A stretch of 64,000 nucleotides of DNA from an uncultured Desulfosarcina sp. (GCA_963674945.2 CAXXWQ010000003.1:64001-128000); one strand, 5' to 3'. Positions 176-54,537 are shown, numbered from the stretch's first letter. A program made the numbers and translations. Notes: generated by a model from the letters alone, not told the origin.

Positions 176-1753
176 TCAGGAAGGAAAATAGGATTCCAAT
201 TCCTGGCTGGTAAAAACCACGAAATCGTCCAGAACGGCTCTGGCCTCTTCGACCGTCTCTTCTGGCGCGATGGACCGAACCAGGCGAACCAACGCCCCAT
301 CGGTCCGCCGCCGGAAGATTCCATCCCAGACCATGTAAAATTTGGCCATGTACTCGCTGGTGAAATTCCGACCTCTCCCCTGGTACCAGTAATAGACCAG
401 TTGGCGCTGATTCCCTTTGGAAATCACCAATTCATTCAATGCTATCTTTCCACCATAGATGGGTTTTCCTTTGTCGATGGCCACCTCTCTGACATGGCTT
501 TTCTCAATGAACCAGCCTGCGCCTGGAAGACAAAGCTTGGGAGAATGGACGAAGTCTCCGGCTTTTCTCTGGTATTCGTAGTAGGCGGTGTAAAAATTGA
601 CCGGTATGTCACCCGATTTCGCATAGTTCACCTGCACATAATCCTGACCGCCGACCCGCTCCCAGATCGTCGTTTCCATCTCGGCGGTTTTTCCCGTATA
701 TCCGTTGCATTGAAGCGGAAACGCATCCAGCTTCTTTTTTAGGGGTTTGGGCGGCACACTGCCAAGGTGAGCCACGACCACCGGGGTTATAAAGATCAGC
801 GATAGTGCCACCAGGATCGCCTGCCACTGAAATTGCCGCCTGCCGGTTGATATAGTCGGCGAAACGGCATCAGCGCGCGGATCCCTCGAGAGGGCACTTC
901 CTTTGCCTGGCAGGTAGCCAAGTCCCAGGTTCAACAGGGCGTAAAAACCAAAACAGATCATGAACACGACCCAACCGGAGAAATCATGAAAAAAACCTTG
1001 GGCGGCTTCTACACCCCAGTACATGGAGACAATACCGGTGCCGGCGATGCGGATGATGTTTGACGCGATGGCGATGGGAATGGAGGCGAGGATGAGAACG
1101 ATGCGCTTCCACCACGTTTTATCTTTGCTCCACCAAAAGGCGAACAATACACCCAAGGTAAACAGAGGAAGAATAAACCGAAGGCCGTTGCACGCCTCCA
1201 CTACCTGAAACTGGGAAAATCCCATATCGATCACGTTGCCTTCCCGATAGGCGGTGATTCCCAGCAGATGAAGGATTTTAACGGAACATGCCGAGGAGAG
1301 CAATTGGAGGGGAAAGGTGATATTGCGATAGATAAACCCTGGCAGTGGCAACATTAAAAACAAAAAGAGAAGTGGAAATCGGATTGCCTTGACAAGATCG
1401 TAACCGTAAAGCAACCAAATCGTGGAAATGAGCATCACAATCAGGGAAACCCGTGTCGTAAATAGCTCGGCCCCCAACTCGCCGACGATAAATAGTAAAA
1501 TTGCCGCCATCAGCACCGGAATGGCACGCCAGTCGGTACCCATAGGCATATCCGCCAATTGGTTGCGTTTTTCCCAGATCAGATAGAGGGAGATGGGGAC
1601 TACCAATAATCCATGGGAGAAGTCGTCGTTGTTCATCCACTGTCGCACCAATGTATGGATCGTATCCCAATAGGAAAAAACGATTGCCACAATGACAACG
1701 GCCAAGGGCACATACCAATGTTTACGATTCAACTTTACCATTAAAGCACTCAC
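176..1753 (-). CDS. xrtD: Exosortase with C-terminal EpsI domain, probably VPLPA-CTERM-specific (XrtD type)
   Basis: Multi-TM N-terminal half with FSHG, VVEACNGLR (catalytic Cys), NIIRI and FFHDFSGW motifs. EpsI-like C-domain (VHSPKLCLPGAGW, YYWYQGRGR, RRTDGALVR). Two VPxP[A/G]-CTERM substrates lie in the same locus. Confidence 0.9.
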   Translation of the reverse strand: MSALMVKLNRKHWYVPLAVVIVAIVFSYWDTIHTLVRQWMNNDDFSHGLLVVPISLYLIWEKRNQLADMPMGTDWRAIPVLMAAILLFIVGELGAELFTTRVSLIVMLISTIWLLYGYDLVKAIRFPLLFLFLMLPLPGFIYRNITFPLQLLSSACSVKILHLLGITAYREGNVIDMGFSQFQVVEACNGLRFILPLFTLGVLFAFWWSKDKTWWKRIVLILASIPIAIASNIIRIAGTGIVSMYWGVEAAQGFFHDFSGWVVFMICFGFYALLNLGLGYLPGKGSALSRDPRADAVSPTISTGRRQFQWQAILVALSLIFITPVVVAHLGSVPPKPLKKKLDAFPLQCNGYTGKTAEMETTIWERVGGQDYVQVNYAKSGDIPVNFYTAYYEYQRKAGDFVHSPKLCLPGAGWFIEKSHVREVAIDKGKPIYGGKIALNELVISKGNQRQLVYYWYQGRGRNFTSEYMAKFYMVWDGIFRRRTDGALVRLVRSIAPEETVEEARAVLDDFVVFTSQELESYFPS

Positions 1754-1767
1754 CTTCGATATTCATT

Positions 1768-3042
1768 TCATGAAGCGATTGCGTTTCTAAGATTCGGAGT
1801 GACGGATGCCCGGCAACAACTTCTGATGACGGAGACAATGCGGCGTAGATCATCGATTCCCATTGCGGTGCCCGACGGCAGGCATAAACCCTGATAAAAA
1901 AGATCTTCACTGACGGCTCCGCCAACCACACGGCATTCACATTGTCCCGAAAGGGGTATTTCCATTTCATCCACACCGACGACCGCCTTTTTCTGTTCGA
2001 TCCGATTTTTCTTCTCATCCTGATTTCCATCTCGGCCGATCACATGGAATACCGGCTGCAAATGCATGGGCTTCCACACCGGCCGGGATTCGATATTTTC
2101 CTCTTCCAACGCCATGCGGATATATTCCCGATCGACGCCGAATTGCTCCGGATCAATGGTGATGACCGTCAGCCAACGGTTGGATCGACCGTATGGCGCC
2201 TCTGGCATAAACGCGATGCCGGGCAAACCGGAAAGCTGCTGACGATAATATTCGAATATCTCACGTCGTCGTCTCACCCGACTGCGCAAGGTTTTCAGTT
2301 GTGCGACGCCGATAGCCGCCACGATGTTGCTCATGCGGTAATTGTACCCGATGGTCGAATGCTCATAGTGGGGCGCAGCATCCCTGGCTTGTTGAGACAA
2401 GAACCGGGCTTGCTCGATGAACGCCGCATCGTCCGAGGCCAGCATCCCGCCGCCCGAGGTGGTGATGATCTTGTTACCGTTGAAGGAATAGATAGCTGCC
2501 TTTGCCCCCACGCCTGAACTGCTGCCATTGTAAGTAGCACCCAGGGACTCGGCAGCATCCACCACGACCGGAACATCGTATTTTTCGCACACGGCGTAGA
2601 TGCGTTCATAATCGGCACATTGGCCGTAGAGGTCGGTGGGCACCACAGCCTTCGGCAGTTTCCCCCTGCGAGTGCGTCGCGCAAGTTCCGCTTCCAACAG
2701 CACCGGATCCATGTTCCAGGTGGCTGGATCGGCATCGATCAACACGGGCGTGGCTGCCTGGAAAAGGATGGGCGTAACGCTGCCGATAAAGGTCAGGGTC
2801 GAGGCAAACACCTCATCACCAGGCCCCACGCCCAAATTGCGTAGGGCCAGATGCATGGCTGCCGTTCCGGAGGACACGGCCACCACGTGAGGAATCCCGA
2901 CCGTATCGGCGAATGCTTTCTCGAAGGCATCCACCATGGGTCCCAAAGGGGCGATGTAGTTGCTCTCGAAGGCGGCCTTTACATACTCCAGCTCGGCTCC
3001 GCCCATATGAGGCGGGGACAGGAAAATGCGTTTACTATTCAT
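1768..3042 (-). CDS. DegT/DnrJ/EryC1/StrS-family PLP sugar aminotransferase (PglE/EpsN-like)
   Basis: IFLSPPHM, SSGTAAMHLAL, DAAESLG, SFNGNKIITTSGGG (PLP Lys), GYNYRMSN, GLCLPSG. Confidence 0.93.
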   Translation of the reverse strand: MNSKRIFLSPPHMGGAELEYVKAAFESNYIAPLGPMVDAFEKAFADTVGIPHVVAVSSGTAAMHLALRNLGVGPGDEVFASTLTFIGSVTPILFQAATPVLIDADPATWNMDPVLLEAELARRTRRGKLPKAVVPTDLYGQCADYERIYAVCEKYDVPVVVDAAESLGATYNGSSSGVGAKAAIYSFNGNKIITTSGGGMLASDDAAFIEQARFLSQQARDAAPHYEHSTIGYNYRMSNIVAAIGVAQLKTLRSRVRRRREIFEYYRQQLSGLPGIAFMPEAPYGRSNRWLTVITIDPEQFGVDREYIRMALEEENIESRPVWKPMHLQPVFHVIGRDGNQDEKKNRIEQKKAVVGVDEMEIPLSGQCECRVVGGAVSEDLFYQGLCLPSGTAMGIDDLRRIVSVIRSCCRASVTPNLRNAIAS

Positions 3043-3226
3043 AATTAGTTTGTGGATTGATTCTGGCTAAAAAGGTGGGCCAACCTCGTCAACTTTAGCT
3101 TAGCTGTTTTTATTTGCTAAGCAAACATAGAGGACGGATAATGAAACGGGTTGCTGGCCGGTAAAATTGCAGTTCCCGATGATATCATGGATGAAGATAT
3201 TGTGATAAATTCGATGTTCTATCTCC

Positions 3227-3297
3227 CACTGATTACTCATCACCGATTACCGATCACTGGATTTTATCCCTTAGCGCCTTCGCGTCTTTGCGTGAGA
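3227..3297. repeat. Composite short-tandem-repeat element: 7-mers (cactgat/tactcat/caccgat/taccgat/cactgg) plus an 8-mer block cccttagcgccttcgcgtctttgcgtgaga
   Basis: Read directly. The 30-bp block at 3268-3297 recurs at 5441-5470 with 2 mismatches. The 7-mer block recurs near 5568-5593 and 6581-6600. Confidence 0.85.
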
Positions 3298-3369
3298 CCT
3301 GTTTCCTTAATCGTCCCAGCGAAGTGTTCGTCCGTCTTTCCCCCTCCCCTCTCTACCACCCACAAAACC

Positions 3370-3409
3370 TTGACAGACTCAGGAAAAGGTAATATTTGAT
3401 AAACAAATA
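3370..3409 (+). promoter_or_regulatory. Putative sigma70 promoter and antitoxin operator of the first TA module
   Basis: TTGACA at 3370-3375, 17-nt spacer, weak -10 (TATTTG) overlapped by the inverted repeat TATTTG-N5-CAAATA (3393-3409), about 25 nt before the antitoxin ATG. Confidence 0.45.
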
Positions 3410-3433
3410 CAACAAATATATTTAGGGGGAGAT

Positions 3434-3658
3434 ATGGCGCAATTACACTGTTATGTACCTGATGAAATAGCGGATCGGTTTAAACAAAAAGCAAAGAAAG
3501 CCAATCTTTCTACTTCAAAGTACCTGGCATTGCTTATAAAAAAAGAAACCGCCGGTGATTGGCCGGATGATTTTTTTGATCTGGCCGGATCATGGCAGGG
3601 GGAACCCATCGCCCGTCCCCGACAATTGAATCTCGAAAAACGAATGGGTATTAAATAG
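3434..3658 (+). CDS. Ribbon-helix-helix-type antitoxin (VapB-like)
   Basis: 74 aa with RHH-like N-terminus (MAQLHCYVPDE...NLSTSKYLA) and WPDDFFDLAGSW tail. Directly upstream of a PIN toxin, with a GGGGAG SD. Confidence 0.8.
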   Translation: MAQLHCYVPDEIADRFKQKAKKANLSTSKYLALLIKKETAGDWPDDFFDLAGSWQGEPIARPRQLNLEKRMGIK

Positions 3659-3659
3659 A

Positions 3660-4061
3660 ATGCACCTTCTGGATACCAATGTTTGCATCCACTTTCTCAA
3701 TGGATCTTCACAATCCGTTATACAGCATTTTCGGTCTCGTTCCCCATCTGAGATTGCCGTTTGCAGCATTGTAAAAGCAGAACTGCTTTTCGGTGCCAGG
3801 AACAGCCAGCGGGTGGATGCCAACCTTCAAATTCTTAAACAGTTTTTTTCCCCTCTGCAGAGCCTTCCTTTCGATGACCGTTGTGCGGATGAATATGGAC
3901 TTATTCGGGCCGATCTGACCGCCCAAGGCAAATTAATCGGCCCCAACGACATGCTCATCGCCGCAGTTGCCCGGGCATTTGATGCAGTGCTGGTGACTCA
4001 CAATACTGCAGAGTTTGGCAGAATATCCGGTCTAAGACTTGATGACTGGGAGACGAGTTGA
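3660..4061 (+). CDS. vapC: VapC-family PIN-domain toxin
   Basis: LLDTNVCI, IVKAELLFGA, IGPNDMLIAA, LVTHNTAEF, LDDW. Confidence 0.93.
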   Translation: MHLLDTNVCIHFLNGSSQSVIQHFRSRSPSEIAVCSIVKAELLFGARNSQRVDANLQILKQFFSPLQSLPFDDRCADEYGLIRADLTAQGKLIGPNDMLIAAVARAFDAVLVTHNTAEFGRISGLRLDDWETS

Positions 4062-4069
4062 TCCACAGA

Positions 4070-4792
4070 TCAGTGATATTGAACATCGAAAAGTAAGTGT
4101 TCCCGCAGCCACCCGGACCAACCGGATGACCGTACCTCCGCCCTCGCTACAGATACCCCGGAAGAGTACAACCCGCATTCGACGAGGCTTCCCCACAATT
4201 GCACCATCTCATTGTAGGCCATTTTCATGCTATCGATTCTATCCCTCCCGTGTCGGGGGAATGAGTATCGCGTTTCCACCTTGTGAATACCGATTCGGCA
4301 TCCTGCAAGAAGGGTCGTCATTTTCAGCAAAAGATAAGAGCGGGCCATGTGATAGTCGGACGTGACCAATAAAACGGATTTGAGTTCATGTGAATCGATC
4401 AATCTCGCCGTGAAAAGCGCGTTCATGAATGTGGTATCCGCTTTCTCCTCCAGAATATATTCTGCGTTTCCAGGCTGCCCATATCGACGTGAGTAATATC
4501 TTAGCTGTCGAGGCGTCGCCGGGCTGACGATCAGCTTGGGAGCGGCGCCTTGTTGGGCAAGTTGATAGCCACGTTTGATACGGCCGCTGCTGCCTGCGAA
4601 AACCACGATGGCGTCGTGATCCCCATAATTCACTGGCTGAGAGTAGATCCAAAGGAAAAACAGCAGTTGGAACACAACAGATGCAATGATTAAAAAAACG
4701 GCTCCAAATAAAACCTTTGAAAATAACCGCAAGACAGGAAAACTATGCCCCGGATTTAATGATTTTTGCAGGTACACCCGCGGCCGTAACAT
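4070..4792 (-). CDS. YdcF/ElyC (DUF218) family membrane-anchored protein; start uncertain
   Basis: N-terminal TM, DAIVVFAG, EEKADTTFMNA and LLVTSDYHMARS motifs. Start trimmed from 4831 to reduce overlap with the upstream gene. Confidence 0.8.
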   Translation of the reverse strand: MLRPRVYLQKSLNPGHSFPVLRLFSKVLFGAVFLIIASVVFQLLFFLWIYSQPVNYGDHDAIVVFAGSSGRIKRGYQLAQQGAAPKLIVSPATPRQLRYYSRRYGQPGNAEYILEEKADTTFMNALFTARLIDSHELKSVLLVTSDYHMARSYLLLKMTTLLAGCRIGIHKVETRYSFPRHGRDRIDSMKMAYNEMVQLWGSLVECGLYSSGVSVARAEVRSSGWSGWLREHLLFDVQYH

Positions 4793-5396
4793 CCGATGGA
4801 AGATCATTAATGACGACCGCGCCCGCACCAATCGTCGTATGATCTCCGATCGTACAACGATTGATCACTTTGGCGCCCGTCCCCCAAAAAGAGGCCGTTC
4901 CGATTATAACCTCTCCTGAAATATTGCACGTGGGCATGAAAGAGCAGAAATCTCCTATTTCTGTCTCATGGCCTACGGTACAGGCCAGATTGATAATAAC
5001 GAATCTTCCGATGTGAATGTTGGTGGTGATAATTGAACCGGCACAAACGATGCTGCCATGCCCGATATCCACATATTTTGGGAACCCCATGACTGCCGAT
5101 GGATGAACCAACGTCGGAAACCAAAGTTTCGAATTGTCGATTTTATTCACGATAGCCTGCTTGGTTTTGGGAATTCCCAATGCAAACGCCACTGCCAAAG
5201 GACGCGACCATGCATTGAGGTCGTTCACACCCCCTAAAACCTGCCATTCATTCACGGTTTTTCCTGCGGGGACACCATCGTCGAAGAAGCCGATCAGATT
5301 CCACTCGTGCTTATCCATATTGATTTGCTCGATCAACATGGCAACCTCGAGCCCAAACCCACCGGCACCGAATATTGCGATATCTTTCCTTGGCAT
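4743..5396 (-). CDS. NeuD/PglD-family sugar acetyltransferase (left-handed beta helix)
   Basis: IFGAGGFGLEV, FFDD, LVHPSA, hexapeptide repeats, VGHE, IGAGAVV, GVPAK. Confidence 0.9.
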   Translation of the reverse strand: MPRKDIAIFGAGGFGLEVAMLIEQINMDKHEWNLIGFFDDGVPAGKTVNEWQVLGGVNDLNAWSRPLAVAFALGIPKTKQAIVNKIDNSKLWFPTLVHPSAVMGFPKYVDIGHGSIVCAGSIITTNIHIGRFVIINLACTVGHETEIGDFCSFMPTCNISGEVIIGTASFWGTGAKVINRCTIGDHTTIGAGAVVINDLPSDVTAAGVPAKIIKSGA

Positions 5397-5440
5397 GCGA
5401 ATTATCAATCCTTTGTCCGCCCTAGCTGATGTCGATATTA

Positions 5441-5593
5441 CCCTTTGCGCCTTCGTGTCTTTGCGTGAGATCCTTATTTCATCCGCAGTTTACACAGATT
5501 TACACAGATCTTTCAGGGCTACGCTCTCATGCCTCTTCTCTCCCTGCTCACTGCTCTCCCGCTCTTATCACCGATCACTGCACACTGGATTTT
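5441..5593. repeat. Composite short-tandem-repeat element: 8-mer block, 9-mer atccgcagtttacacagatttacacagat, pyrimidine-rich 7-mers, caccgat/cactg 7-mers
   Basis: Read directly. Shares blocks with 3227-3297 and 6528-6688 and lies immediately upstream of the second TA module. Confidence 0.85.
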
Positions 5594-5668
5594 GCTCAAA
5601 CTTCCGTAAACATTTAGAATTAAAGCCTAAATGGCAAAAGCCCTTTTCAGTAGCTACGTCAAAAAAGT

Positions 5669-5705
5669 TTGACAATAATACCATTTCGTTTTACGTTTTG
5701 TAAAA
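5669..5705 (+). promoter_or_regulatory. Putative sigma70 promoter and operator of the second TA module
   Basis: TTGACA (5669-5674)-N17-TACGTT (5692-5697), with the inverted repeat TTTTAC-N5-GTAAAA (5689-5705) over the -10. Confidence 0.55.
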
Positions 5706-5733
5706 AGGTCCAACAAAAAAGGAATTGCAGACC

Positions 5734-5964
5734 ATGGAAACATTAAAAGTGTCAGCAAAAGGGCAGGTCGTTTTGCCAGCACGTATTCGAAAAAAGTACG
5801 GGATACACCCTGGCGGAAGCATTCAGATGTTCGAATACGACAACCTGATTTATCTTGTTCCCCCTCCCGAGGATCCAGTAAAGGCAGCAAAGGGCTGCTT
5901 ACCTTCAAAGCCGTCCTTGTCGAAACAGCTTCTCGAAGAGAGGCAGCGGGATTCCAGGAAATGA
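5734..5964 (+). CDS. AbrB/MazE/SpoVT-family antitoxin
   Basis: KVSAKGQVVLPARIRKKYGIHPG motif. ATG at 5734 after AAGGAA; the stop overlaps the toxin ATG (ATGA). Confidence 0.9.
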   Translation: METLKVSAKGQVVLPARIRKKYGIHPGGSIQMFEYDNLIYLVPPPEDPVKAAKGCLPSKPSLSKQLLEERQRDSRK

Positions 5965-6365
5965 GCCCACCTTATATCTTTGACAGTCACGCTCTTCTGG
6001 CCTTTTTCCAAAACGAGGACGGGGCAGATGTTGTAGGTGATATTCTGACGAAAGCCATCAAACAACATATTGAACGCTTCCTCTGCATTATCAATCTCGG
6101 CGAAATCATCTACATGACGAAAAGGCGGTTTGGTGACGCAAAAAAGATTGAGGTATTGCAGCGTATCCATACTCTTGGTTTCAGCTTGATTTCCGTTTCA
6201 GATGACCTGGTATACAACGCTGCAGAGATAAAGGCAGAATATTCGATTTCCTATGCCGATTGTTTTATGGTAGCGTGCGCGATAACACATTCAGCCACGA
6301 TTGTTACAGGAGACCCGGAATTCAAAAAAGTAACGGATATCATCGCGGTGAAATGGATACGCTGA
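5961..6365 (+). CDS. vapC: VapC-family PIN-domain toxin
   Basis: YIFDSHALLAFF, INLGEIIY, SISYADCF, IVTGDPEF. Confidence 0.92.
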   Translation: MSPPYIFDSHALLAFFQNEDGADVVGDILTKAIKQHIERFLCIINLGEIIYMTKRRFGDAKKIEVLQRIHTLGFSLISVSDDLVYNAAEIKAEYSISYADCFMVACAITHSATIVTGDPEFKKVTDIIAVKWIR

Positions 6366-6485
6366 TCCCGTGCCCAATTTCCGCTTTAATCCAGTCTTGT
6401 TCATTGAAAAACATACCAACAATAACGAGGGTATCGATAATAGTTAATGGACGAAGAATGCGTGATCGATCACCTCGCAAAAACT

Positions 6486-6520
6486 TGTGAAAATTCGAAA
6501 TCCGATGTCGAATTTTCACA
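6486..6520. terminator. Perfect 13-bp inverted repeat between convergent genes; possible terminator or operator
   Basis: tgtgaaaattcga-N9-tcgaattttcaca, with no clear U-tract. Confidence 0.4.
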
Positions 6521-6527
6521 GATTCTT

Positions 6528-6688
6528 GCTTCCCAATGCACTCCCCGCTCTCTGCTTCCCGGTCACCAGTTACTATCGCTTACTGATCACCGATCACTGG
6601 GTTATACGCTCTATCGGTTTTTGAATCTGCGCAAACCTGCGTAAACTTGTCTGGACGTAGCTTTATGCGAAGACTGATCTGCGGATTA
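6528..6688. repeat. Composite short-tandem-repeat element overlapping the 3' end of the sugar transferase gene
   Basis: Pyrimidine-rich 7-mers, tactgat-caccgat-cactgg (6581-6600), and 9-mers aatctgcgc/aaacctgcg...gatctgcggatt (reverse of the 5481-5509 block) interrupted by the small palindrome gtct...cgtagctttatgcgaagac. Confidence 0.75.
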
Positions 6689-7284
6689 AACTCCGGCATC
6701 GTCGCCTCCCCTTCCGCCGATATCCCCTCTCGTCGAAACACTTTCAAAACGGTCATTCCAATGATCTTCAGATCCAGCCAGATTGATTGATTGTCCACAT
6801 ACCAGACATCCAGTTTGAACTTCTCTTCCCAACCAATGGCATTCCTGCCGTTGATTTGCGCCCAGCCGGTAAGCCCCGGTTTCACTTCATGCCGCCTGGC
6901 CTGCTCCGGCGTATAGCGATCCAGGTACTGCGTCAACAACGGCCGGGGTCCCACAATACTCATGTCGCCTTTTATGATGTTGATCAGTTCGGGCAGTTCA
7001 TCCAGAGATGTCGATCTAAGAAACCGTCCCAAGGGTGTCAGACGGTCGGCGTCAGGCAGCAAAATTCCGTCGGCATCCCGGGCATCGATCATGGTACGGA
7101 ATTTATACAGAATAAACGGCCTTCCGCCCATCCCCGGCCGGGTCTGGGTAAAAAGGATCGGTCGGCCGACACGCATGCGGATTCCAACCGCGATGCACAG
7201 CAATAGTGGCGAAAGCGACAAAAAAGCAGTCGCCGCCAGAATCAGATCCATCAATCGTTTCATATCGAACCGTATTTTAATCAA
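6580..7284 (-). CDS. PglC/WbaP-type initiating phosphoglycosyltransferase (Bac_transf); likely start at MKRLMD
   Basis: KRLMD, single TM, KFRTM, LRSTSLDELPEL, GDMSIVGPRP, KPGLTGWAQ, DVWYV. Confidence 0.93.
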   Translation of the reverse strand: MIKIRFDMKRLMDLILAATAFLSLSPLLLCIAVGIRMRVGRPILFTQTRPGMGGRPFILYKFRTMIDARDADGILLPDADRLTPLGRFLRSTSLDELPELINIIKGDMSIVGPRPLLTQYLDRYTPEQARRHEVKPGLTGWAQINGRNAIGWEEKFKLDVWYVDNQSIWLDLKIIGMTVLKVFRREGISAEGEATMPEFNPQISLRIKLRPDKFTQVCADSKTDRAYNPVIGDQ

Positions 7285-7288
7285 TCAC

Positions 7289-8413
7289 TTAATTGTTTTG
7301 CGACAAACCCAGTTCTCTGAGCATGATATCGTTTATTGTATTCACATCAAATAATTCTTGAGCCATCAAACGACTCTCCTGGCCCATGGCCATGACCATT
7401 TGTGGATGCGTTATTAAATATTGCATCGCCTCTGCAAGGGCGTTTACATTTTTTAACGGAACCAGTAACCCATTGCGACCATGTGTAACTGTTTGACGGC
7501 AGCCGGGCGTATCCGTTGTTATGATAGCGCGCCCCATAGCCATGGCCTCAAGCACTGTCCGGGGCGTGCCCTCTCGATAAGAGGGCAGTGCATAAACGCT
7601 ACAAGCCTTTATGGCAGGACGGACATCATCCAGTTTGCCGAGATACTCAATGACACCCTCATTCCTCCATGTATCCAATTCACAATTCGATATAGCACCA
7701 GGTACAACATCTATCCATCCGGCTAAATAAAAAAGGGTATCGGGGTACTGCTTCTTAACTATCCTGGCAGCCTGGACATACTCATGAATCCCCTTTTCTT
7801 TTATCAGCCGTGCAATTAGCAAAAACGCGGGTCGCGCTGGATGGGGCGCCGCTTGAAAATGAGATAGATCGACTCCGGAACCGTTTATTAAGATAGGCTT
7901 GCTGAAATCGCCTATTAGAGATAATTTCTTAAAGAGCCTCAGGTCATCCAGGTTCTGAAAAAAAACTATACGTGCATGACGCAATGCAACCCGGTATAAT
8001 CCTTTGGCGAATACATTCAGCAGCTTCTGCTTGAACGATTCGCTCATGAAGGTATAGCCAAGGCCCGTAATCATGGCATTACGTGAAGGGACTTCAGCTA
8101 TCCAGGCGGCAATAGATCCGTAAACGACTGGTTTGATGGTGTACGTGAGGATGATGTCCGGCCGTATCTGACGTAACAGCATAACCAACCCGAACATGCA
8201 AAGCAAATCCCTAATCGGATTCAATCCGGTACGATGCAAATCAACGCGTCGGAAGTGTACCCCCCATAAGGCCAGTTGCTGCTTGACATCGTCATCCGAC
8301 TCTGGCGCGCAGGCAAAAACTTCGTGGCCATGATGACGCATGGCGCGAAGCAGTGGCCCCCTAAAATTGATCAGGCTCTGTGCATAACTCCCAATTATCA
8401 AAATGCGTGACAT
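7289..8413 (-). CDS. GT4 glycosyltransferase (PglA/CapM-like)
   Basis: NFRGPL, YTIKPVVYG, ITGLG, FQNLDD, GSGVD, LPSYREGTPRTVLEAMA. Confidence 0.92.
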   Translation of the reverse strand: MSRILIIGSYAQSLINFRGPLLRAMRHHGHEVFACAPESDDDVKQQLALWGVHFRRVDLHRTGLNPIRDLLCMFGLVMLLRQIRPDIILTYTIKPVVYGSIAAWIAEVPSRNAMITGLGYTFMSESFKQKLLNVFAKGLYRVALRHARIVFFQNLDDLRLFKKLSLIGDFSKPILINGSGVDLSHFQAAPHPARPAFLLIARLIKEKGIHEYVQAARIVKKQYPDTLFYLAGWIDVVPGAISNCELDTWRNEGVIEYLGKLDDVRPAIKACSVYALPSYREGTPRTVLEAMAMGRAIITTDTPGCRQTVTHGRNGLLVPLKNVNALAEAMQYLITHPQMVMAMGQESRLMAQELFDVNTINDIMLRELGLSQNN

Positions 8414-8650
8414 TATCGATTTATTCGTTAGAAAGGAGTGAAGATAAACGATGGTTTATAATTCTCTGAAGTGGAATCTTCTTTGAAGAGGACAATATTT
8501 ATTGCGCAAAAACAAAGCAATTTCAATCAAACGCTACTCTTCTATAATCATTCATATCAGCACTGCCACCAAAATAGTTGAGGTCATTTCATTAATGCAA
8601 CTCCTATATTTCAGGATCTGAATTCATAAAAAAACCCATTACATAACGCT

Positions 8651-12592: not shown

Positions 12593-12604
12593 TGGATTAT
12601 CCTT

Positions 12605-42989: not shown

Positions 42990-43856
42990 CTAGGGCCGCG
43001 TTTTGTCCGGCTGCAGATTATGAACATACACATCGCAATCGAGCGGTTTTCCGCCAAAGGGATGCCCCCAGTCGATCCAAAACCATTCTTCCTCGATGCG
43101 ATCGACCCGGCCTATCAGTTGGCCAGCCCGGACGATTTCGCCGACCCTGTTCTCGGTGATCATCCAGTAGTTTTTTTCGTCGATTTTCACCAAATGTTTG
43201 TGCCCCAATGGGTCCGGAATCATCAGACCATCTTCAAACAACAGGTTGCAAGTGATCCACTCGCCCTTGATCTCACCGAAACGGAGTTGGGTACCGGGCA
43301 AAACTTCGAAATCCACCGTATCGCCGGGTCCAATATTCTCGCCGTATCTTTGCCTGGTGACAGCCAGCCCGGAATCGAATACCAACGGCAGCCTGCGCCT
43401 GCGTTTTATTTTGGTGTAGCGCTCGTTTTTCTGAATATTCGGCGGAATTTCTCCCTGAATGGAAATTTGCATTCTTCTGTCGTAGGGCTTGTTCACGATG
43501 CCGTTGGCGAGATAAGCGGGAACTGAAAATTCCAAAAACTCCGCCACGTCCCGCTGGAGCATATAGTTAAGGGCCTTGTCGCCCGCCGTTGCGGACACGG
43601 GACCGTACTCACGCAGAGGCATGAAGTTTTTGTTGGCCGCCTTTTTCCCCTCGGCCGCTATGGCTTTTGCCGCATCGGTGGTGATCATCAGGGACCCATC
43701 GGGAAGGTAGCAACTGTAGTCGATCATCACTGCGTCACCCGGTTGGACCAACACATCCGGTTTCACCATGCCCGCGCATCCATATACGCTCGCGATGCAT
43801 ACCGCTGCCGCCATTGCCAGCCATCTCATGCGCATGTTACCCATTGCCTGTATCAT
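42990..43856 (-). CDS. Lipoprotein with degenerate FKBP/SlyD-like fold
   Basis: Lipobox VYGC; VQPGDAVMIDYSCYLPDG and C-terminal IDWGHPFGGKPLDCDV, matching the SlyD DxNHPLAGK.L motif. Confidence 0.65.
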   Translation of the reverse strand: MIQAMGNMRMRWLAMAAAVCIASVYGCAGMVKPDVLVQPGDAVMIDYSCYLPDGSLMITTDAAKAIAAEGKKAANKNFMPLREYGPVSATAGDKALNYMLQRDVAEFLEFSVPAYLANGIVNKPYDRRMQISIQGEIPPNIQKNERYTKIKRRRRLPLVFDSGLAVTRQRYGENIGPGDTVDFEVLPGTQLRFGEIKGEWITCNLLFEDGLMIPDPLGHKHLVKIDEKNYWMITENRVGEIVRAGQLIGRVDRIEEEWFWIDWGHPFGGKPLDCDVYVHNLQPDKTRP

Positions 43857-44186: not shown

Positions 44187-44216
44187 ACGGGGCCGCACTG
44201 CTACGTGCGGCCCCGT
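44187..44216 (-). terminator. Strong 12-bp GC hairpin downstream of the PstS-fold gene (terminator or mRNA-stabilising stem)
   Basis: acggggccgcac-N6-gtgcggccccgt, with only a weak U-tract on the minus strand. Confidence 0.55.
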
Positions 44217-45765: not shown

Positions 45766-46446
45766 TTAGATTTTTTTACGACGAACGCCGATCAAGCCCA
45801 GAAGACCGGAACCCATCAACCAGGCGGCGGCGGGAACGGGAACTTCGCTTACATCGGTGGGTCCCTCGATAATGAAATCGGCGGTACCGTTGCCATTGTT
45901 GATCATCTTGATGGTGGCATAGTTCAACGGGTCGCCGGTGACGCCTATTTGAGTCCAGAGGTACATCTCATCTTCGGCGTCCGTCAGGTTGCCTTTTCCA
46001 TCTCCCAGGGCGATCAGCCCCTTCAAGGACGGAGTCATCATGTTCATGAAAGAGTTTTGGTCGGCGGTGAGGTGTTCGACGCCGTAGTCGTTGTTTTTGG
46101 ATACGTAGTCTGCTGAGGACCAGAATGAGTTGATGAAGGTGGGTTTGGCTGCGCCGTCCGCCTGCTGCTCATTGATACCCCAGCCCAACCATCCGCCGTT
46201 GTAGGTTGCAAACAAAGAAAAACCGGTGTAGCTGCCGATTGAGACGTCGTCCAGCAAGGTCGCGCCAAAGTTGTCGGCGATGTCGCCACTACCGGTGTCA
46301 TAGCCGGCGCCGAGGTCGTAGATGATTTCGTGGGTGTCGTTGTACATTACCAGGTTCACTGCAAGGGGGGCGAGATCGGCGGAAGCGGTGCCGGCGACGC
46401 CAACCATGACCATAACACCTAAAACAGCTGCGAAAACCTTTTTCAT
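45766..46446 (-). CDS. VPLPA-CTERM-type exosortase substrate (surface protein)
   Basis: Signal peptide MKKVFAAV...ASA; C-terminus SEVPVPAAAWLMGSGLLGLIGVRRKKI; GGAGG SD before the ATG at 46446. Confidence 0.92.
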   Translation of the reverse strand: MKKVFAAVLGVMVMVGVAGTASADLAPLAVNLVMYNDTHEIIYDLGAGYDTGSGDIADNFGATLLDDVSIGSYTGFSLFATYNGGWLGWGINEQQADGAAKPTFINSFWSSADYVSKNNDYGVEHLTADQNSFMNMMTPSLKGLIALGDGKGNLTDAEDEMYLWTQIGVTGDPLNYATIKMINNGNGTADFIIEGPTDVSEVPVPAAAWLMGSGLLGLIGVRRKKI

Positions 46447-46983: not shown

Positions 46984-49900
46984 TCATCTTGCTTGATGCT
47001 GGATGATTTTTATAGCCGATACGGCCATGGCAACGAACAGACAGGCAACAAACCCCATAATCCACGAGGTGCCGGCCGGCAGCGACCCGACTGTGCCGAC
47101 AAAACAGGATGATCCGCCGTCACCGCTGCCATTGTTCTGTCCACTCAACCGTCCGCTTTCGTTGGTAGCGGCAATCGTATACAAGGAGAAATGCTCGATT
47201 TCGCAAACCAGCATGTTGTTCTCTTCGTCCACCTTTTTCACGGCGATCGTTTCCCAGCGGCGATCGACTTTATCGTACGTATAGGCCATGAGGAACGCAG
47301 GATTGATCCCACCGGCCGCCTTTAAAGCGGCTTCGGTATAAGGAATGTTAATGGTGATCGGCATGTTGAACCAGGTACCCGATGGGCCAAAATCGATTAC
47401 CTTGCCCACAGGCACTAAATCGGAATCCATGGTTGGTATGCCGAGTCCAGTTGCCTCGCCGATGGAAATGGTTGTCGTTGTTCGTAAGGCACCGGCAGGA
47501 ATGATGACTTGCGTGCCGTTTATGGCGCTGCCAGCATCGGTAACTTTTATAATCGTGTTATAGGGAACCGTAAGATCGTAGATGCCTTCCTCCACGACCA
47601 TGATTTCAGGCTCGGTGCTACCGTCCAGGTCCACCGTGAAGCTGAATACCGATGTCCACCACGAATCATCATTGACGATCCGGGCACGCCAATAATAGGT
47701 GGTTTCATCTTCGAGATCTTCATCGACCCGCCATGCGGTCTTGCCGACAGTGGTTTGGCCGACCGCGACCCTTCCCGTTATCGCGCTGTCACGGTACACC
47801 TCAAATTCGACTTGAATGGACGATTTATTGTCTTCCGACACTACCATTACGCCGATCACCGGCGTCTGTGTGTTGACGGTTCCGCCGTTGAATGGCACAG
47901 TGGGAATTATTCCCGGTGTTGCCGTGGCCGCCTGGCTCACGCTCACATTCACATCCCGAAAGACCGTGTCCGTTCCGTCGCCTACCGTCAGGGTGAAGGT
48001 ATAGTCGTTGGCGCCGTTATCCGCATAGGCTGGCGCAGTGAAAGTCACCGACACCCCTGTTTTGGGGAAATCATCGATATCATCGGACGTGGACCAGATG
48101 TAGGTCAGATCATCCCCATCGGCATCGCCAGCCGTTCCGCTCAAGGTCACCGTGGTGCCCTCAACGGCCGGATTGGGGGAGGCCGTGATACCGGATATTA
48201 CCGGCGCAGTATTGTTCTGGCTGACGGTGAAGGTGACGTCCCGGGCGGCCGAGTCCGTGCCGTCGCTTACCGTCAGGGTGAAAGTGTAGTCGTTGTCTCC
48301 ACCCTCAACGTATGCCGGCGCGGCAAAGCTCGCCGTAGCACCGGTCTGCGGAAACCCGCCAACCCCTTCTTCCGTGCTCCAGGTGTAAGTCAAGGCATCC
48401 CCGTCGCCATCGCTGGCCGCGCCGCTCAAGGTTACTGTGGCGCCTTCGGCGGCCGGGTTGGGGGATGCCGTTGCGCTGGATATTGTCGGAGCCGTATTTT
48501 CCGAGGTGACGGTGAAGGTGAAAGTCTGGGTAACCGAATCTGTGCCGTCGCTCACCGTCAGCGTGATAATATATTCATTATCACCACCATTAATGAAGGC
48601 CGGCGCCGTAAAGGACCACAGTTGCTTGTCCGTGGGCAATCCGGCGAGGGGCCTGGCCGAAGACCATGCGTACGTCAGCGCATCTGTCACATCGACGTCG
48701 ATCGCCTCTCCGGATATCAACACCCGCGTTCCCTCGGTGCCCGAATCGGGATCTATTGTTGCATTCAAAATCACGGGGGCAGTGTTGCCCTGGGTGACGG
48801 TAAAAGTGACGGCCGCGGTGTCCGTGTCCGTGCCGTCGCTCACCGTCAACTTGAAGGTGTAGACGTTATCCCCGCCGTCCACGTAGGCCGGTGCGGTGAA
48901 GCTCGCAGTGGCGCTGGCCTGCGGAAAGCCGCCGAGCCCGTCGCCCGTGCTCCAGGTGTAAGTCAAGCCGTCCCCATCGCCGTCGCTGGCCGTTCCACTC
49001 AGGGTTACTGCTGTTCCTCCGGGGCCCGACACGGGCGACGCCGTCGCACTCTTGATTTCGGGGGGCTCGTTGGTCTGGGAGGCGGTGACGGTAAAAGTGA
49101 CGGCCGCGGTGTCCGTGTCCGTGCCGTCGCTCACCGTCAACTTGAAGGTGTAGACGTTATCCCCGCCGTCCACGTAGGCCGGTGCGGTGAAGCTCGCAGT
49201 GGCGCTGGCCTGCGGAAAGCCGCCGAGCCCGTCGTCCGTGCTCCAGGTGTAAGTCAAGCCGTCCCCATCGCCATCGCTGGCCGTTCCACTCAGGGTTACT
49301 GCTGTTCCTCCGGGGCCCGACACGGGCGACGCCGTCGCATTCTTGATTTCGGGGGGCTCGTTGGTCACCGGAGGATTTAGAATGACGCTGCCGTCGGGAT
49401 CGATTCGTAGCGCCGCGCAGTAGTCCGTACTCTGATCCGGGCCCCGGTTTAGAGAGAATTCGCCATCAAGAAGTATGTTGTGGTATAAGTACATGGTTAC
49501 GGATTGGCCTTCGGCCAGGGGGGCCAGATTTACCTCTCCGGTTTCGGCATTACGGTTAAAACCGGCGAAGAATCCCCCAGGAAAAACGCCTCTGTTCATT
49601 TGGGTATGATAGGCGTTATCTCCGGCCGCCTGCCCCACAAAGATACCGCATTGTGGGTTATCTATACAATTTAAGTACATCTTGTTTGCTGAACTGAGAA
49701 AATTACTCATTTGGCTTTTGCTGATATTCGGCTCTACTTTTGATGTGGTCGCAAATATCATGTGTGACCCAAAAGTACTAGATGATGATAAAAATGAAAA
49801 AAAAGTGGCATTTAACTGGCTCCAATCGCTTACTGCGGAAAAATCTTCCAGTCCAAAGCCTTGTTCGACAAGTGGATAATCACGCTCACTGTAAAAGAGG

Positions 49901-50130
49901 TTGTAGCCGGGGGTAACTTCATCCCATGTAAAAAAAAATCCCAAGTCCATTAACATTTCATTCGTACTGGGGTCATATATCACCATTATAAGATGAAAGT
50001 CTGTAAAATCAGGAGTTTCGGAATGAACTTTTGTGACAAACAGAAAGAGGAATGCGAAAAGGAAAACGGATACCCTTTTTGCTATATCATCTTGGAATGC
50101 TTTCAATTTATCCTCTTGATATATCGCCAA
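46984..50130 (-). CDS. 1048-aa surface protein: N-terminal domain resembling the VPVPA-CTERM protein, five PKD/Ig-like repeats, further Ig/ZU5-like domains, Gly-rich Cys-Phe motif plus TM anchor
   Basis: Five N..P.I..ATASP...LTYTWS...LTVSDGTD repeats; DFGPSG..F..PITI.IPY...HFSLY region; ends GSGDGGSSCFV + hydrophobic helix + basic tail. Start uncertain (TTG). Confidence 0.8.
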   Translation of the reverse strand: MAIYQEDKLKAFQDDIAKRVSVFLFAFLFLFVTKVHSETPDFTDFHLIMVIYDPSTNEMLMDLGFFFTWDEVTPGYNLFYSERDYPLVEQGFGLEDFSAVSDWSQLNATFFSFLSSSSTFGSHMIFATTSKVEPNISKSQMSNFLSSANKMYLNCIDNPQCGIFVGQAAGDNAYHTQMNRGVFPGGFFAGFNRNAETGEVNLAPLAEGQSVTMYLYHNILLDGEFSLNRGPDQSTDYCAALRIDPDGSVILNPPVTNEPPEIKNATASPVSGPGGTAVTLSGTASDGDGDGLTYTWSTDDGLGGFPQASATASFTAPAYVDGGDNVYTFKLTVSDGTDTDTAAVTFTVTASQTNEPPEIKSATASPVSGPGGTAVTLSGTASDGDGDGLTYTWSTGDGLGGFPQASATASFTAPAYVDGGDNVYTFKLTVSDGTDTDTAAVTFTVTQGNTAPVILNATIDPDSGTEGTRVLISGEAIDVDVTDALTYAWSSARPLAGLPTDKQLWSFTAPAFINGGDNEYIITLTVSDGTDSVTQTFTFTVTSENTAPTISSATASPNPAAEGATVTLSGAASDGDGDALTYTWSTEEGVGGFPQTGATASFAAPAYVEGGDNDYTFTLTVSDGTDSAARDVTFTVSQNNTAPVISGITASPNPAVEGTTVTLSGTAGDADGDDLTYIWSTSDDIDDFPKTGVSVTFTAPAYADNGANDYTFTLTVGDGTDTVFRDVNVSVSQAATATPGIIPTVPFNGGTVNTQTPVIGVMVVSEDNKSSIQVEFEVYRDSAITGRVAVGQTTVGKTAWRVDEDLEDETTYYWRARIVNDDSWWTSVFSFTVDLDGSTEPEIMVVEEGIYDLTVPYNTIIKVTDAGSAINGTQVIIPAGALRTTTTISIGEATGLGIPTMDSDLVPVGKVIDFGPSGTWFNMPITINIPYTEAALKAAGGINPAFLMAYTYDKVDRRWETIAVKKVDEENNMLVCEIEHFSLYTIAATNESGRLSGQNNGSGDGGSSCFVGTVGSLPAGTSWIMGFVACLFVAMAVSAIKIIQHQAR
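48793..49366. repeat. Near-perfect intragenic tandem duplication, period 291 bp (97 codons)
   Basis: 48793-49075 versus 49084-49366, about 3 mismatches seen by eye. Confidence 0.9.
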
Positions 50131-50741: not shown

Positions 50742-51494
50742 TCAATTTGCTCCCGTTCCTCTAAGGCGTTGTCTACCTACCACCAATACCAAACCGCTGG
50801 CGAACATGATCGCCGCACCGGGAAGCGGCACCTCGCTGGTCCGGGAGACGACGGCCACAAGATCGTTAAAATCTGCGTCTCCGATGTTGAGCTCTTCGAA
50901 CCCGATGAGCCACACGTCATTGGTGTCGGCGGTGTAATCGGTGCCGAAGAGCAGATTGAAGTTGCCGAGCAGTTCGTCATCCTCTATGGCAAAGGCCACG
51001 AAGTGGTCCTTGTTTCCCAGGATGTTTTGCGAACGGTCGGCGGACCAGCGCTCCTGGGCCTCGCCGACCCATTCTCGCCGGGTGTCGGCAAAGGTATACC
51101 CGTCCAGCATGGTGAAAGTCGTATCCTGCTGGATGATGGTGTTCCTTACAAAAGCTTCGCTTCCCAGTACCTTCTGGTACCCCGGGTCTCCGGCGCTGCT
51201 GTCTCCGTTCCAGAGGCCCAGTTCTCCTCCCCATCCCGACTCCCGGTAGGTTGCATCCACGCGGAAGGTGTCTCCGGTCTTGCCGAAAACAATATCAGAA
51301 CCATCTTTCAGGTAATAATCAGACATGCTAAGTTCCCACGTGCTGTCCATCGTCTTGGTGCTTCCCTCTGGCACGAACAACTCATTGAAAACCTGGTAAA
51401 GTTCTGCGTTCTCCAGTGTTACACTCATGCTGGCTTGACTTTGGGAGGCAACCAGCAGCAATCCCGACAAAAACAATACGAAAACTCTGTTCAT
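50742..51494 (-). CDS. Second exosortase substrate (VPLPG-CTERM) with DUF4114-like C-terminal motif
   Basis: Signal peptide MNRVFVLF...SQA, IGFEELNIGDADFNDLV, tail SEVPLPGAAIMFASGLVLVVGRQRLR; AAGGAG SD. Confidence 0.85.
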   Translation of the reverse strand: MNRVFVLFLSGLLLVASQSQASMSVTLENAELYQVFNELFVPEGSTKTMDSTWELSMSDYYLKDGSDIVFGKTGDTFRVDATYRESGWGGELGLWNGDSSAGDPGYQKVLGSEAFVRNTIIQQDTTFTMLDGYTFADTRREWVGEAQERWSADRSQNILGNKDHFVAFAIEDDELLGNFNLLFGTDYTADTNDVWLIGFEELNIGDADFNDLVAVVSRTSEVPLPGAAIMFASGLVLVVGRQRLRGTGAN

Positions 51495-51552: not shown

Positions 51553-51939
51553 TTACGCTGTTTCCTCGCAAGAGACTTTCACCTTGGTAATCCGTTCCAA
51601 TCGCATTTTCTGAAAATCAAACACCTTTGGAACTCGAAAAATCCGATATTCCTTGTCGAAAGACAGTGCCATGCCGCAACCATTGGCACGAATCACATGG
51701 CCACTTAGTTTGATACAGCTGTTGTGGGTCGTTCCGAACAATTCATCGCGCTGAACCAATAACTCGATCGACACCTTTTTTCCAATGGGAAGTTGAAGAT
51801 CGGTCTCTACCAACGCGCCGCCGACACTCACGTTGGAAGTAACCGTCTGGCATTGCACGTTTCCGTTCAAATCGTCCGAAGCAAAGATCAAGCAGGGTAA
51901 TTTCAGGTTGAACCGTCTTTCGGTTCGGCACTCTTCCAT
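51553..51939 (-). CDS. Single-domain PilZ protein
   Basis: RTERR (RxxxR) and NVSVGG (D/NxSxxG) c-di-GMP motifs, G.VIR...GMALSF; AAGGAG SD. Confidence 0.88.
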   Translation of the reverse strand: MEECRTERRFNLKLPCLIFASDDLNGNVQCQTVTSNVSVGGALVETDLQLPIGKKVSIELLVQRDELFGTTHNSCIKLSGHVIRANGCGMALSFDKEYRIFRVPKVFDFQKMRLERITKVKVSCEETA

Positions 51940-53074: not shown

Positions 53075-53776
53075 TTACATGTATCGCGCCACCCACAATG
53101 TTGCTTCCAGACGGTTTTTCACTTCGATTTTCCTGTAGATGTTGAAAATGTGGCTTTTCACGGTGTTCAGACTGATAAAATATTCGGTGGCGATTTCACT
53201 GTTGGTGGCACCGGCGGCGATAGCGATTAAGATCTCCTTTTCACGTCGGGTCAGTTTGACTTCGGCCGTCACAATACTCGCCCGATAGGCCCGTGAGTCC
53301 ATGAGAATTTCGGAAGTGGTTTTACGGGAATACCACAACTCGCCATTTAATATTTTCTTAATCCCCTTGAGGAAGTACTGTGGCTTCTCATCGGCATAAA
53401 AGACACCGCGAATTCGTTTCTCAATGGCTTGTCGTTCAAAGGCAGCACCGACTTTCGGATCGATATTGAATAGTGCAATGGGCTGATCCAGTGGATTGGG
53501 CACCCCGCCAAGGTTGAGTTTGAACCAGATTGCATTGGCATCCATGGAAAAACTGTCCCATAGGATAAGATCAAAAGGGCAGGCTTCATCGCTGCAGCTC
53601 CAATGTTCCATTATTTCAAAATCGCTGTTTTGTTCCATTCCATCGTTCAATACCGCCTTGAGCAAACAGTTCTGAAAGGCATTTTGGCCGACCAAACCAA
53701 TTCTCCAACGGGCACCATCCGGTTCCAAGGTTTGTTTGTCTTCCATTGTGGCGCGTGTCTCAAATTCTGGCAGCAT
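53075..53776 (-). CDS. LuxR-family regulator with degenerate receiver domain (CsgD/VpsT-like)
   Basis: IRGVFY...GIKKILNGELWYSR linker; HTH LTRREKEIL...GATNSEIA..YFISLNTVKSHIFNIYRKI.V.NR. Confidence 0.88.
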   Translation of the reverse strand: MLPEFETRATMEDKQTLEPDGARWRIGLVGQNAFQNCLLKAVLNDGMEQNSDFEIMEHWSCSDEACPFDLILWDSFSMDANAIWFKLNLGGVPNPLDQPIALFNIDPKVGAAFERQAIEKRIRGVFYADEKPQYFLKGIKKILNGELWYSRKTTSEILMDSRAYRASIVTAEVKLTRREKEILIAIAAGATNSEIATEYFISLNTVKSHIFNIYRKIEVKNRLEATLWVARYM

Positions 53777-53847
53777 AGGTACCTTTCAAAATCGGATGTT
53801 TATGTAAAAGACAATTCACAAAACGTCTGTAACGGGCTTGGGTGATG

Positions 53848-54537
53848 CTATTTCTCAACACCCCGAAAACGGTAGCCAACACCGCGAACCGTTTCGATAT
53901 AGCCGGCGCAAGCTCCCATCTTGCGTCGTAGGTTGACGATGTGCATACCGATACTGGTTACGGCACAATTTTCCCCATGAATCGATTTGGCAATTTCCGA
54001 ACGGTTGAATACCCAGCCGGGTTTTGACATCAGAATTTTGAGCAGTTTGAATTCACTGGCAGTCAGGTGAATGGGTTGGCTTTCAATACAAACCTTGTGC
54101 CTTCGCAAGTCGATGTGCAATCCATTATATCGTATCGTGGTGTCGTTGTTTTTCGGTTTATCAGATCGTGAGCGAAGCACGGCCCGTACACGTGCGGTCA
54201 GGACGACAGGATTGAACGGTTTGGTGATAAAATCAGCGGCCCCTGAATCCAAATACGTTATGATGTCCTGCTCGCTGCTGCTGCCTGAGAGCATCACCAC
54301 CAGAATATGCATCGTATGCATGTTTCCTTTTAGCCGCCTGATTACCGACAACCCATCCATGCCCGGCAATATGGTATCTACGATCAATAGATCAATCGAA
54401 TTCGACTTGACGACTTCCAGTGCCTCTTCCCCGGAATCGACTGCAATTACCTGAAACTTCAACCTGCGAAGGCACTGATAGATCAAATCACGATACACTT
54501 CATCAGCGTCAGCGACCAGTATCAAATCTTTTCCCAT
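53848..54537 (-). CDS. OmpR/PhoB-family response regulator (no adjacent kinase)
   Basis: Receiver (LIVDTILPGMDG, GAADFITKPF) and winged helix (LTASEFKLL, HIVNLRRK, IETVRGVGYRF). Confidence 0.92.
   Translation of the reverse strand: MGKDLILVADADEVYRDLIYQCLRRLKFQVIAVDSGEEALEVVKSNSIDLLIVDTILPGMDGLSVIRRLKGNMHTMHILVVMLSGSSSEQDIITYLDSGAADFITKPFNPVVLTARVRAVLRSRSDKPKNNDTTIRYNGLHIDLRRHKVCIESQPIHLTASEFKLLKILMSKPGWVFNRSEIAKSIHGENCAVTSIGMHIVNLRRKMGACAGYIETVRGVGYRFRGVEK

Follow-up and report, generated by a model that had tools for sequence, protein, structure and literature searches.

The closest described relative of the locus examined in this study is, by composition, the PA0690-PA0699 region of Pseudomonas aeruginosa (pdtA, pdtB, exbB2-exbD2-tonB4 and PA0696-PA0699; the PUMA3/sigma-VreI regulon). 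The locus lies in a 64,000-nucleotide stretch of DNA from an uncultured Desulfosarcina sp. (GCA_963674945.2 CAXXWQ010000003.1:64001-128000), referred to below as the window, and comprises three joined modules: a core of two-partner secretion (TPS), Ton motor and porin genes, a head unit of riboswitch, CTERM gene and PstS-like gene, and a cluster of exosortase XrtD and extracellular polysaccharide (EPS) genes. Common to the window and the P. aeruginosa region are TpsA/TpsB, ExbB-ExbD-TonB, a putative porin, a signal-peptide protein following it and a peptidyl-prolyl isomerase in one run. The initial annotation had pointed to a resemblance to the pdtA-pdtB-exbB2-exbD2 region, and a kinship with pdtA-pdtB-exbB2-exbD2-tonB4-PA0696 is supported by the composition given in two reports, which state that the P. 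aeruginosa Ton system and PA0696-PA0700 are uncharacterised (PMC7035377, PMC2729926). Unlike that region, the window locus lacks VreAIR, the type II secretion system (T2SS) Hxc, a YbjN gene and a Pho box (no match to VreA, VreI, VreR or the Hxc T2SS among the 43 window proteins scanned), and has in their place a cyclic di-GMP (c-di-GMP) riboswitch, the CTERM/PstS-like head, FKBP-like chaperones and the XrtD/EPS cluster.

The remaining modules also have described counterparts. Like the XrtD/PEP-CTERM EPS systems (floc-forming PepA/PrsT), the locus has XrtD-EpsI, a VPLPA-CTERM cargo protein, a PrsT-like TPR protein and Wzx/Wzy genes, with putative Wza and Wzc genes, named by eye, left of the window; unlike them, its cargo is of an unnamed family tied to a TPS/Ton/porin core, and the sigma-54 consensus upstream of head genes was not above shuffled sequences. 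The pepA gene of Aquincola is RpoN-dependent (PMC9850573). The window RNA resembles c-di-GMP-I riboswitches (GEMM-I, RF01051/RF03167) in its P1-P2-P3 layout, its tetraloop and its G20 and C92 positions, and differs from typical GEMM-I in a 92-nt insert in P3, in sub-threshold scores and in heading a secretion/motor cluster. The PstS-like protein has the fold and binding-site motifs of PstS/DING proteins but is ~450 aa long with Cys-rich insertions, has no adjacent pstCAB and is paired with a sorted surface protein. Each module is of a known kind; what appears to be new is that a riboswitch, an unnamed CTERM family, a PstS-fold protein and the TPS/Ton/porin core form one conserved combination. 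No description of the CTERM, PstS-like and TPS/Ton/porin unit was found in the open-access literature, subscription journals lying largely outside the search. The reading preferred here, tentatively and at somewhat below an even chance, is that of a dedicated machine, switched by c-di-GMP, for building a biofilm surface coat out of the CTERM/PstS-like pair and a giant fibre in a polysaccharide matrix.

A conserved head unit beside the secretion core

True Porin_5 matches (>340 bits) were present in 9/151 genomes of the host's order; PF16930 matches below 130 bits, seen in 16 of these genomes, represent a different porin type and were set aside before the count. The PstS-like family occurred in 9/9 of the porin-positive and 1/142 of the porin-negative genomes, with four of the ten PstS-like-positive genomes having fed the profile. 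The sole porin-negative carrier (G133) has a piece with the CTERM gene, the PstS-like gene, an FKBP-like gene and tpsA at a contig end. An 88-bit match in G121 looks like an ordinary PstS and was left uncounted. The CTERM and PstS-like genes were adjacent to each other and beside the core in 15/15 genomes in which the head region was read, a sample biased toward long contigs that includes Desulfosarcina, Geobacter, Nitrospirota, Thiobacillus, Sulfuriferula and Chromatiaceae; the pair stands beside the core in G111, G150, G019, G135 and G126. Of 20 gammaproteobacterial loci selected without regard to similarity, the PstS-like gene was present in 14, in ten of these directly behind a tagged CTERM gene, while one of the other six had no PstS-like gene within 20 kb and five were uninformative. 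In this genome (G000), tblastn gave a single copy each for TpsA, TpsB, TonB, the porin, the coiled coil and the PstS-like gene. Co-occurrence counts here and below include kin genomes and are not independent, so that Fisher values overstate the association; on these observations, the head unit is a tight partner of the TPS/Ton/porin core.

The VPLPA-CTERM protein of the head unit belongs to an unnamed family whose domain is labelled DLG here. A profile built without the tail gathered 577 clusters at 50% identity, and 115 of the 122 short DLG proteins among the best 150 carried a CTERM (scored by a tail pattern made here), although the profile itself contained no CTERM. This genome has only two members, the VPLPA-CTERM protein and the N-terminus of the adjacent PKD protein (E 2e-15). 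No Pfam match (21 members) and no meaningful NCBIfam match (12 members) was found, and the structural model (pLDDT 68.7; best VIA Z 3.3) gave no fold match; from these negatives neither novelty nor absence follows. An assignment to the flocculation protein PepA (NF033554) was rejected, with 42.2 bits against a cut-off of 80 when the tail was included and no match for 12 tail-less members. Across the host's order the DLG profile matched 6/151 genomes, all porin-positive, but it missed the known carriers G019 and G133 and is therefore weak evidence; a word-index search with the same profile matched the query alone. The proteobacterial CTERM proteins probably belong to the DLG family, judging from a shared N-terminal motif and, in some, weak profile matches. 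On a Methylomagnum plasmid (L054:14170-19504), the PstS-like gene is preceded by three proteins that look DLG-like by eye and have no CTERM.

Exosortase-type tails occur on only two genes of the locus, the VPLPA-CTERM gene and a second one whose VPLPG tail was read by eye. The tail of the PKD protein and of the C10 peptidase reads G-x-x-C-F-[IV]. Elsewhere in this genome, two VPVPG-tailed CTERM genes are followed by two large proteins with GGCF[IV] tails (G000:C4:2069970-2080160), and ~15 open reading frames (ORFs) encode secreted proteins that finish in a brief G/D-rich C-F-[IV] tail, which often lacks a following membrane helix. Glycosylation of the cargo, also claimed, is not borne out by the D/E-x-N-x-S/T sequon, which is absent from both CTERM proteins and the PstS-like protein.

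The second protein of the pair has, in its predicted structure, a class II binding-protein fold with phosphate-site motifs, a fold that P. aeruginosa LapA presumably shares as a PstS/DING protein. The model (pLDDT 78) had 4exl as its best Foldseek match (E 4e-14, TM 0.80 on the target), and GASAQ, GxSD and RxxGSGT are kept across 21 aligned homologs, while the score of the window protein is below the PstS family cut-off (TIGR02136, 36.6 vs 206.6). Signal peptides were read from sequence on both the DLG and the PstS-fold protein. A hairpin stands 3' of the PstS-like gene in 31/35 loci (z < -2 vs mononucleotide shuffles), and also after 2/7 other window genes tested.

The conserved fold and binding-site motifs would also suit a role in uptake or sensing, in which the PstS-fold protein would leave through T2SS or Wza and serve as an outward-facing receptor held by the CTERM protein or TpsA, and phosphate or a phosphorylated ligand would be pulled in through Porin_5 by the TonB motor, feeding cells within the biofilm. 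TonB motors usually drive import, phoU adjoins the porin on the Methylomagnum plasmid, and phosphate starvation is stated to induce the relative in P. aeruginosa (PMC7035377). However, canonical PstS copies are present elsewhere in the genome, and family scans found no pstCAB-type or ABC permease match in the locus. Pho boxes (E. coli-type consensus) numbered 4 in the window vs 4.8 expected, and 19 upstream of 32 head genes vs a mean of 14 and a maximum of 21 in shuffles. With control appearing to be based on c-di-GMP, uptake is considered unlikely, though a serious contender.

The core itself was compared across 80 porin loci from one-per-species genomes, many of them cut by contig ends. ExbD was adjacent to the porin in 66 loci, ExbB-DUF2341 in 65, TonB in 64 and TpsA in 53, and the coiled coil followed the porin in 56. 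The closest named porins to that of the window are from Desulfosarcina, and Porin_5 has no solved relative by sequence. The first FKBP-like gene after the head unit is conserved in Desulfobacterota and Nitrospirota loci. Plasmid cassettes homologous to the window core by BLAST (porin identity 29-33%) have other surroundings: the Klebsiella core is accompanied by extracytoplasmic function (ECF) signalling genes and has no CTERM or PstS-like gene, the Cupriavidus core adjoins a T2SS, and the Methylosinus core has ECF genes and an ordinary-looking binding protein. In a quick, midpoint-drawn tree of 95 rows, porins of these ECF/T2SS-type plasmids and of G530 form a separate clade (SH-aLRT 99), apart from the window type. 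TpsA, TpsB, ExbB, ExbD, TonB, the porin and the coiled coil are shared with the CTERM-less cassettes, which would fit a motor and porin that serve TpsA alone (in release, extension, retraction or anchoring via DUF3739), the pair decorating the fibre after export by other means. This is rather improbable: the Cupriavidus stretch has motor and TpsB but no TpsA within 41 kb, and the near-perfect co-occurrence of PstS-like gene and porin would be left unexplained.

A predicted riboswitch at the start of the head unit

A word common to 32 upstream regions of head genes led to a c-di-GMP-I-clan riboswitch that ends 36 nt ahead of the VPLPA-CTERM start codon at 46446. At gathering score Rfam had no match in the window, and the riboswitch surfaced only in an E-value scan. 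The homology is shown, and RF01051 is above cut-off at the same site in 20/37 other genomes carrying the PstS-like gene, and this match is the only one found genome-wide in 7 gammaproteobacteria (81 candidates were scored per genome, making such counts a lower bound). If the position numbering of the class is taken to apply, the window RNA has the ligand-contact bases G at position 20, A47 and C at the C92 position. According to PMC6140456, c-di-GMP is bound through G20 and C92, and an A at position 20 is the mark of cGAMP switches. In the ligand-free fold the GGAGG ribosome site lies paired to a 5' CCUCC; its unpaired probability is 0.00 and rises to 0.33 when P1 is held. Such pairing was found in the window and in three other Desulfobacterales loci.

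Among the regulators at the upstream end of the locus, the PilZ protein has the RxxxR and NxSxxG motifs, and the WYSR of the LuxR regulator resembles the c-di-GMP motif of VpsT; similar CsgD/VpsT-like genes stand upstream in G135, G180, G193 and G322. The c-di-GMP control proposed in the initial annotation gains from the riboswitch, which had been overlooked as had the PstS fold, and from the PilZ motifs, with both the ligand and the ON logic predicted. Scans for sigma-70 promoters and terminators stayed at chance level. Riboswitches for c-di-GMP ahead of CTERM genes near EPS genes are described for Methylophaga GP59 (PMC12530212), so the riboswitch-CTERM link is by itself not new.

Several other observations were made in these upstream regions. 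Tandem runs of 4-5 back-to-back c-di-GMP-I matches were found at G111:C57, at G150:C136 and C122, and at G019:C75 and C79. Three Geobacter-type loci (L146, L147, L148) have a second conserved motif ~330 nt 5' of the DLG gene, upstream of the riboswitch site (GACCTGG...CCAGGGxCCGGAAAGCCCACT...GTGGG), to which Rfam gave no match at gathering score. Words of GGGACCTTTGCCGACC are repeated in the intergenic stretch that separates the LuxR gene from the PilZ gene (window 51980-52400), and a 137-aa ORF there has no family match.

Exosortase, polysaccharide genes and the extent of the locus

XrtD was above cut-off in 7/9 porin-positive and 15/142 porin-negative genomes of the order, and in an eighth porin genome an XrtD-like gene scoring 372 bits lies 24 kb downstream. 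In 401 gammaproteobacterial genomes an exosortase was found in 23/27 porin-positive and 91/374 porin-negative genomes (16/20 of the porin-positive when 7 genomes of prior choice are left out), lying on the porin contig, within ~62 kb, in 9/23 of the double-positive genomes. Exosortases were also present in 45/50 porin-bearing genomes, these being the 50 of the 80 porin loci that were searched. Glycan/EPS genes occurred within 10 kb downstream of 21/43 porin loci whose flank reached 8 kb or more, compared to 57/699 background windows, all from this genome. The association of exosortase and polysaccharide genes with the core suggested in the initial annotation is thus real, but it is one-way: no Porin_5 match was found in 15/22 XrtD genomes of the order, nor in 91/114 exosortase-positive gammaproteobacteria, many of the genomes in both sets being drafts. 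As side observations, an exosortase H gene lies directly upstream of a CTERM cargo cluster in G126 (L037:8977-10068), and there are weak exosortase-family matches near several other cassettes.

In its strong form, the idea of the initial annotation is that exosortase-processed glycoproteins at large cross the outer membrane by way of the core. The enrichment in core-bearing genomes speaks for this, but most exosortase genomes have no porin, a T2SS secretin is present here (GspD above cut-off, C3:1.12 Mb), the clade of porins with ECF/T2SS genes has no CTERM gene, and the other CTERM genes of this genome lie elsewhere and have no DLG domain. A general export route was consequently rejected and is regarded as very improbable.

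Profiling Porin_5 against XrtD, as had been suggested, gave the enrichment above, and in some genomes the modules are separated. G015 has the head unit next to XrtD/EPS and the core on another contig, in G111 the core lies apart from XrtD, and the EPS genes are upstream in D. alkanivorans and downstream here. These rearrangements, the low GC and toxin-antitoxin insertions within the glycan genes, and the precedent of GP59 would all fit an envelope island in which modules cluster through common c-di-GMP control, each working alone; the searchable part of the GP59 supplement has no DUF2341 entry (PMC12530212). An uncoupled island of this kind is quite unlikely, as the adjacency of head unit and core is fixed across Desulfobacterota, Nitrospirota and Pseudomonadota.

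Family scans of the 43 window proteins confirmed the single orientation noted in the initial annotation, with all real genes from 54537 to 176 on the minus strand apart from two toxin-antitoxin pairs (Table 1). The order had been taken as a 54-kb unit; the order holds, while the locus continues ~11 kb beyond the left window edge (G000:C3:52963-64127) with genes whose labels, assigned by eye, are CapD-like, PrsT-like TPR, Wza, outer-membrane barrel, Wzc halves and AAA ATPase. Intergenic gaps of 422-1171 bp divide the locus, and this layout speaks against a single transcript. The glycan genes encode an NDP-sugar dehydrogenase, an epimerase, a beta-helix protein, a flippase, GT2/GT4 proteins, a polymerase/ligase, a priming transferase, an acetyltransferase, a DUF218 protein and an aminotransferase, and GC drops to 37-43% at 12-18 kb. 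The C10 peptidase has a 97% identical copy at G000:C4:146611-148338 and is a recent duplicate, not a conserved part of the locus. The neighbours at window 56509-63998 are unrelated (molybdopterin oxidoreductase, methyltransferase, outer-membrane barrel and Cache/PAS histidine kinase).

Table 1. Features of the locus in minus-strand gene order, with window positions
Feature	Position	Strand	Basis or remark
OmpR/PhoB-type response regulator	53848..54537	minus	family scans; the likely main PhoB of the genome is another gene, near a canonical pstS at C3:2.06 Mb
CsgD/VpsT-like LuxR regulator	53075..53776	minus	family scans
Stand-alone PilZ protein	51553..51939	minus	motifs RxxxR and NxSxxG
Second CTERM-type secreted protein	50742..51494	minus	VPLPG tail by eye; no HMM match; homolog in same place in G135
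1048-aa surface protein, PKD repeats, Cys-containing C-terminal tail	46984..50130	minus	family scan
c-di-GMP-I-clan riboswitch, 92-nt insert in P3	46482..46648	minus	predicted translational ON switch
VPLPA-CTERM protein (DLG family)	45766..46446	minus	TIGR03370, 27.7 vs 25.35
Secreted PstS-fold protein, 12 Cys	44279..45694	minus	motifs GASAQ, GxSD, RHAGSGT
Terminator-like hairpin, 12-bp, after PstS-like gene	44187..44216	minus	
FKBP-like lipoprotein	42990..43856	minus	label by resemblance; no family match
FKBP-like and thioredoxin lipoprotein	41666..42949	minus	family scan
TpsB (POTRA and ShlB/Omp85)	39993..41603	minus	family scan
TpsA, 3284 aa, TPS domain and C-terminal DUF3739	29987..39841	minus	family scans
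ExbB, N-terminal DUF2341 and LamG, then channel domain	27841..29718	minus	family scan
ExbD	27427..27834	minus	family scan
TonB	26594..27346	minus	family scans
Porin_5 outer-membrane barrel, N-terminal helical region	24967..26553	minus	family scan
Membrane-anchored coiled-coil protein	24285..24980	minus	conserved after porin
PrsT-like TPR protein	22141..24255	minus	268 bits, below PrsT cut-off of 312
C10 cysteine peptidase and PKD, shortened Cys tail	19961..21682	minus	family scan
Polysaccharide genes (~15), Wzx/Wzy-type	1768..19774	minus	family scans
Toxin-antitoxin pair 2	5725-5964 and 5961-6365	plus	read from sequence, outside family scan
Toxin-antitoxin pair 1 (PIN/VapC, 3660-4061)	3434-3658 and 3660-4061	plus	inserted among glycan genes
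Exosortase XrtD fused to EpsI	176..1753	minus	TIGR04152, 470.9 bits vs cut-off of 400

A putative coat-building machine

The layout recalls a message for structural subunits followed by their assembly machine: a switch, two abundant-looking secreted proteins, a hairpin, chaperones, a TPS pair, a motor and a porin. In the coat-building reading, c-di-GMP would bind the riboswitch, P1 would form and the Shine-Dalgarno sequence would be freed, giving a short, high-level two-gene message. The DLG protein and the PstS-fold protein would then leave the cytoplasm via Sec, XrtD would cleave the VPLPA tail, as family knowledge suggests, and the FKBP/thioredoxin lipoproteins may fold the Cys-rich PstS-like protein and TpsA. 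TpsB would export TpsA, which is the known TPS mechanism, and ExbB-ExbD-TonB, acting via the coiled coil on Porin_5, would move the DLG/PstS-like pair across the outer membrane or onto TpsA, the scaffold of the coat. This part for motor and porin is suggested by fixed synteny and co-occurrence; we infer both the contact between cargo and machine and the direction of transport, as we would any glycosylation. The neighbouring Wzx/Wzy/Wza genes would make the polysaccharide that anchors the coat, and the PstS-fold subunit likely grips phosphate or phosphorylated polymers and minerals.

Several observations weigh against this reading. On the side of the switch, the window riboswitch scores below both Rfam cut-offs (52.8 bits vs 59 for RF03167, E 2.7e-10; 32.9 vs 35 for RF01051), probably because of the 92-nt insert, and 17/37 relatives with the PstS-like gene have no passing RF01051 match; in two of the 17 the motif is visible by eye, and two are cut at the end of a stretch or contig. 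The pairing that masks the ribosome site was found in 4/9 loci tested and was not clear in the other five, and with P1 held the site is freed only partly (0.33, 0.21, 0.17 and 0.06). On the side of the route, there are the separated modules of G015 and G111, and two fragmented drafts (G088 and G284) have the PstS-like gene and no exosortase match. In addition, GlyGly- and MYXO-CTERM cargo travel by T2SS according to a preprint (bioRxiv 2023.06.07.544157), and the neighbouring LapA of P. aeruginosa is secreted by the Hxc T2SS (PMC7035377); with a GspD of its own in this genome, the DLG/PstS-like pair may not need the porin.

A stronger form of the coat-building reading, doubtful in itself, is that Porin_5 with DUF2341-ExbB/ExbD/TonB constitutes a proton-driven protein export/assembly channel, the first identified outer-membrane route for one class of PEP-CTERM proteins, which polymerises a coat of DLG and PstS-fold proteins on TpsA when c-di-GMP rises. 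Motor-driven export of proteins across the outer membrane is the logic of type IX secretion. Such a channel would be an old system of Desulfobacterota, Nitrospirota and Pseudomonadota, with the P. aeruginosa pdt region as a rewired relative.

According to PMC12188702, it is unclear by which path PEP-CTERM proteins pass through the outer membrane. This study names two specific candidate clients and a c-di-GMP switch for the uncharacterised exbB2-exbD2-tonB4-PA0696-type system, and the questions of the PEP-CTERM route and of the Ton system can therefore be tested together in culturable carriers, which include Thiobacillus denitrificans DSM 12475, Sulfuriferula multivorans, Halochromatium glycolicum and Geobacter argillaceus. 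The unnamed DLG family, with its many clusters, may supply bacteria of sediments and aquifers with a major biofilm protein.

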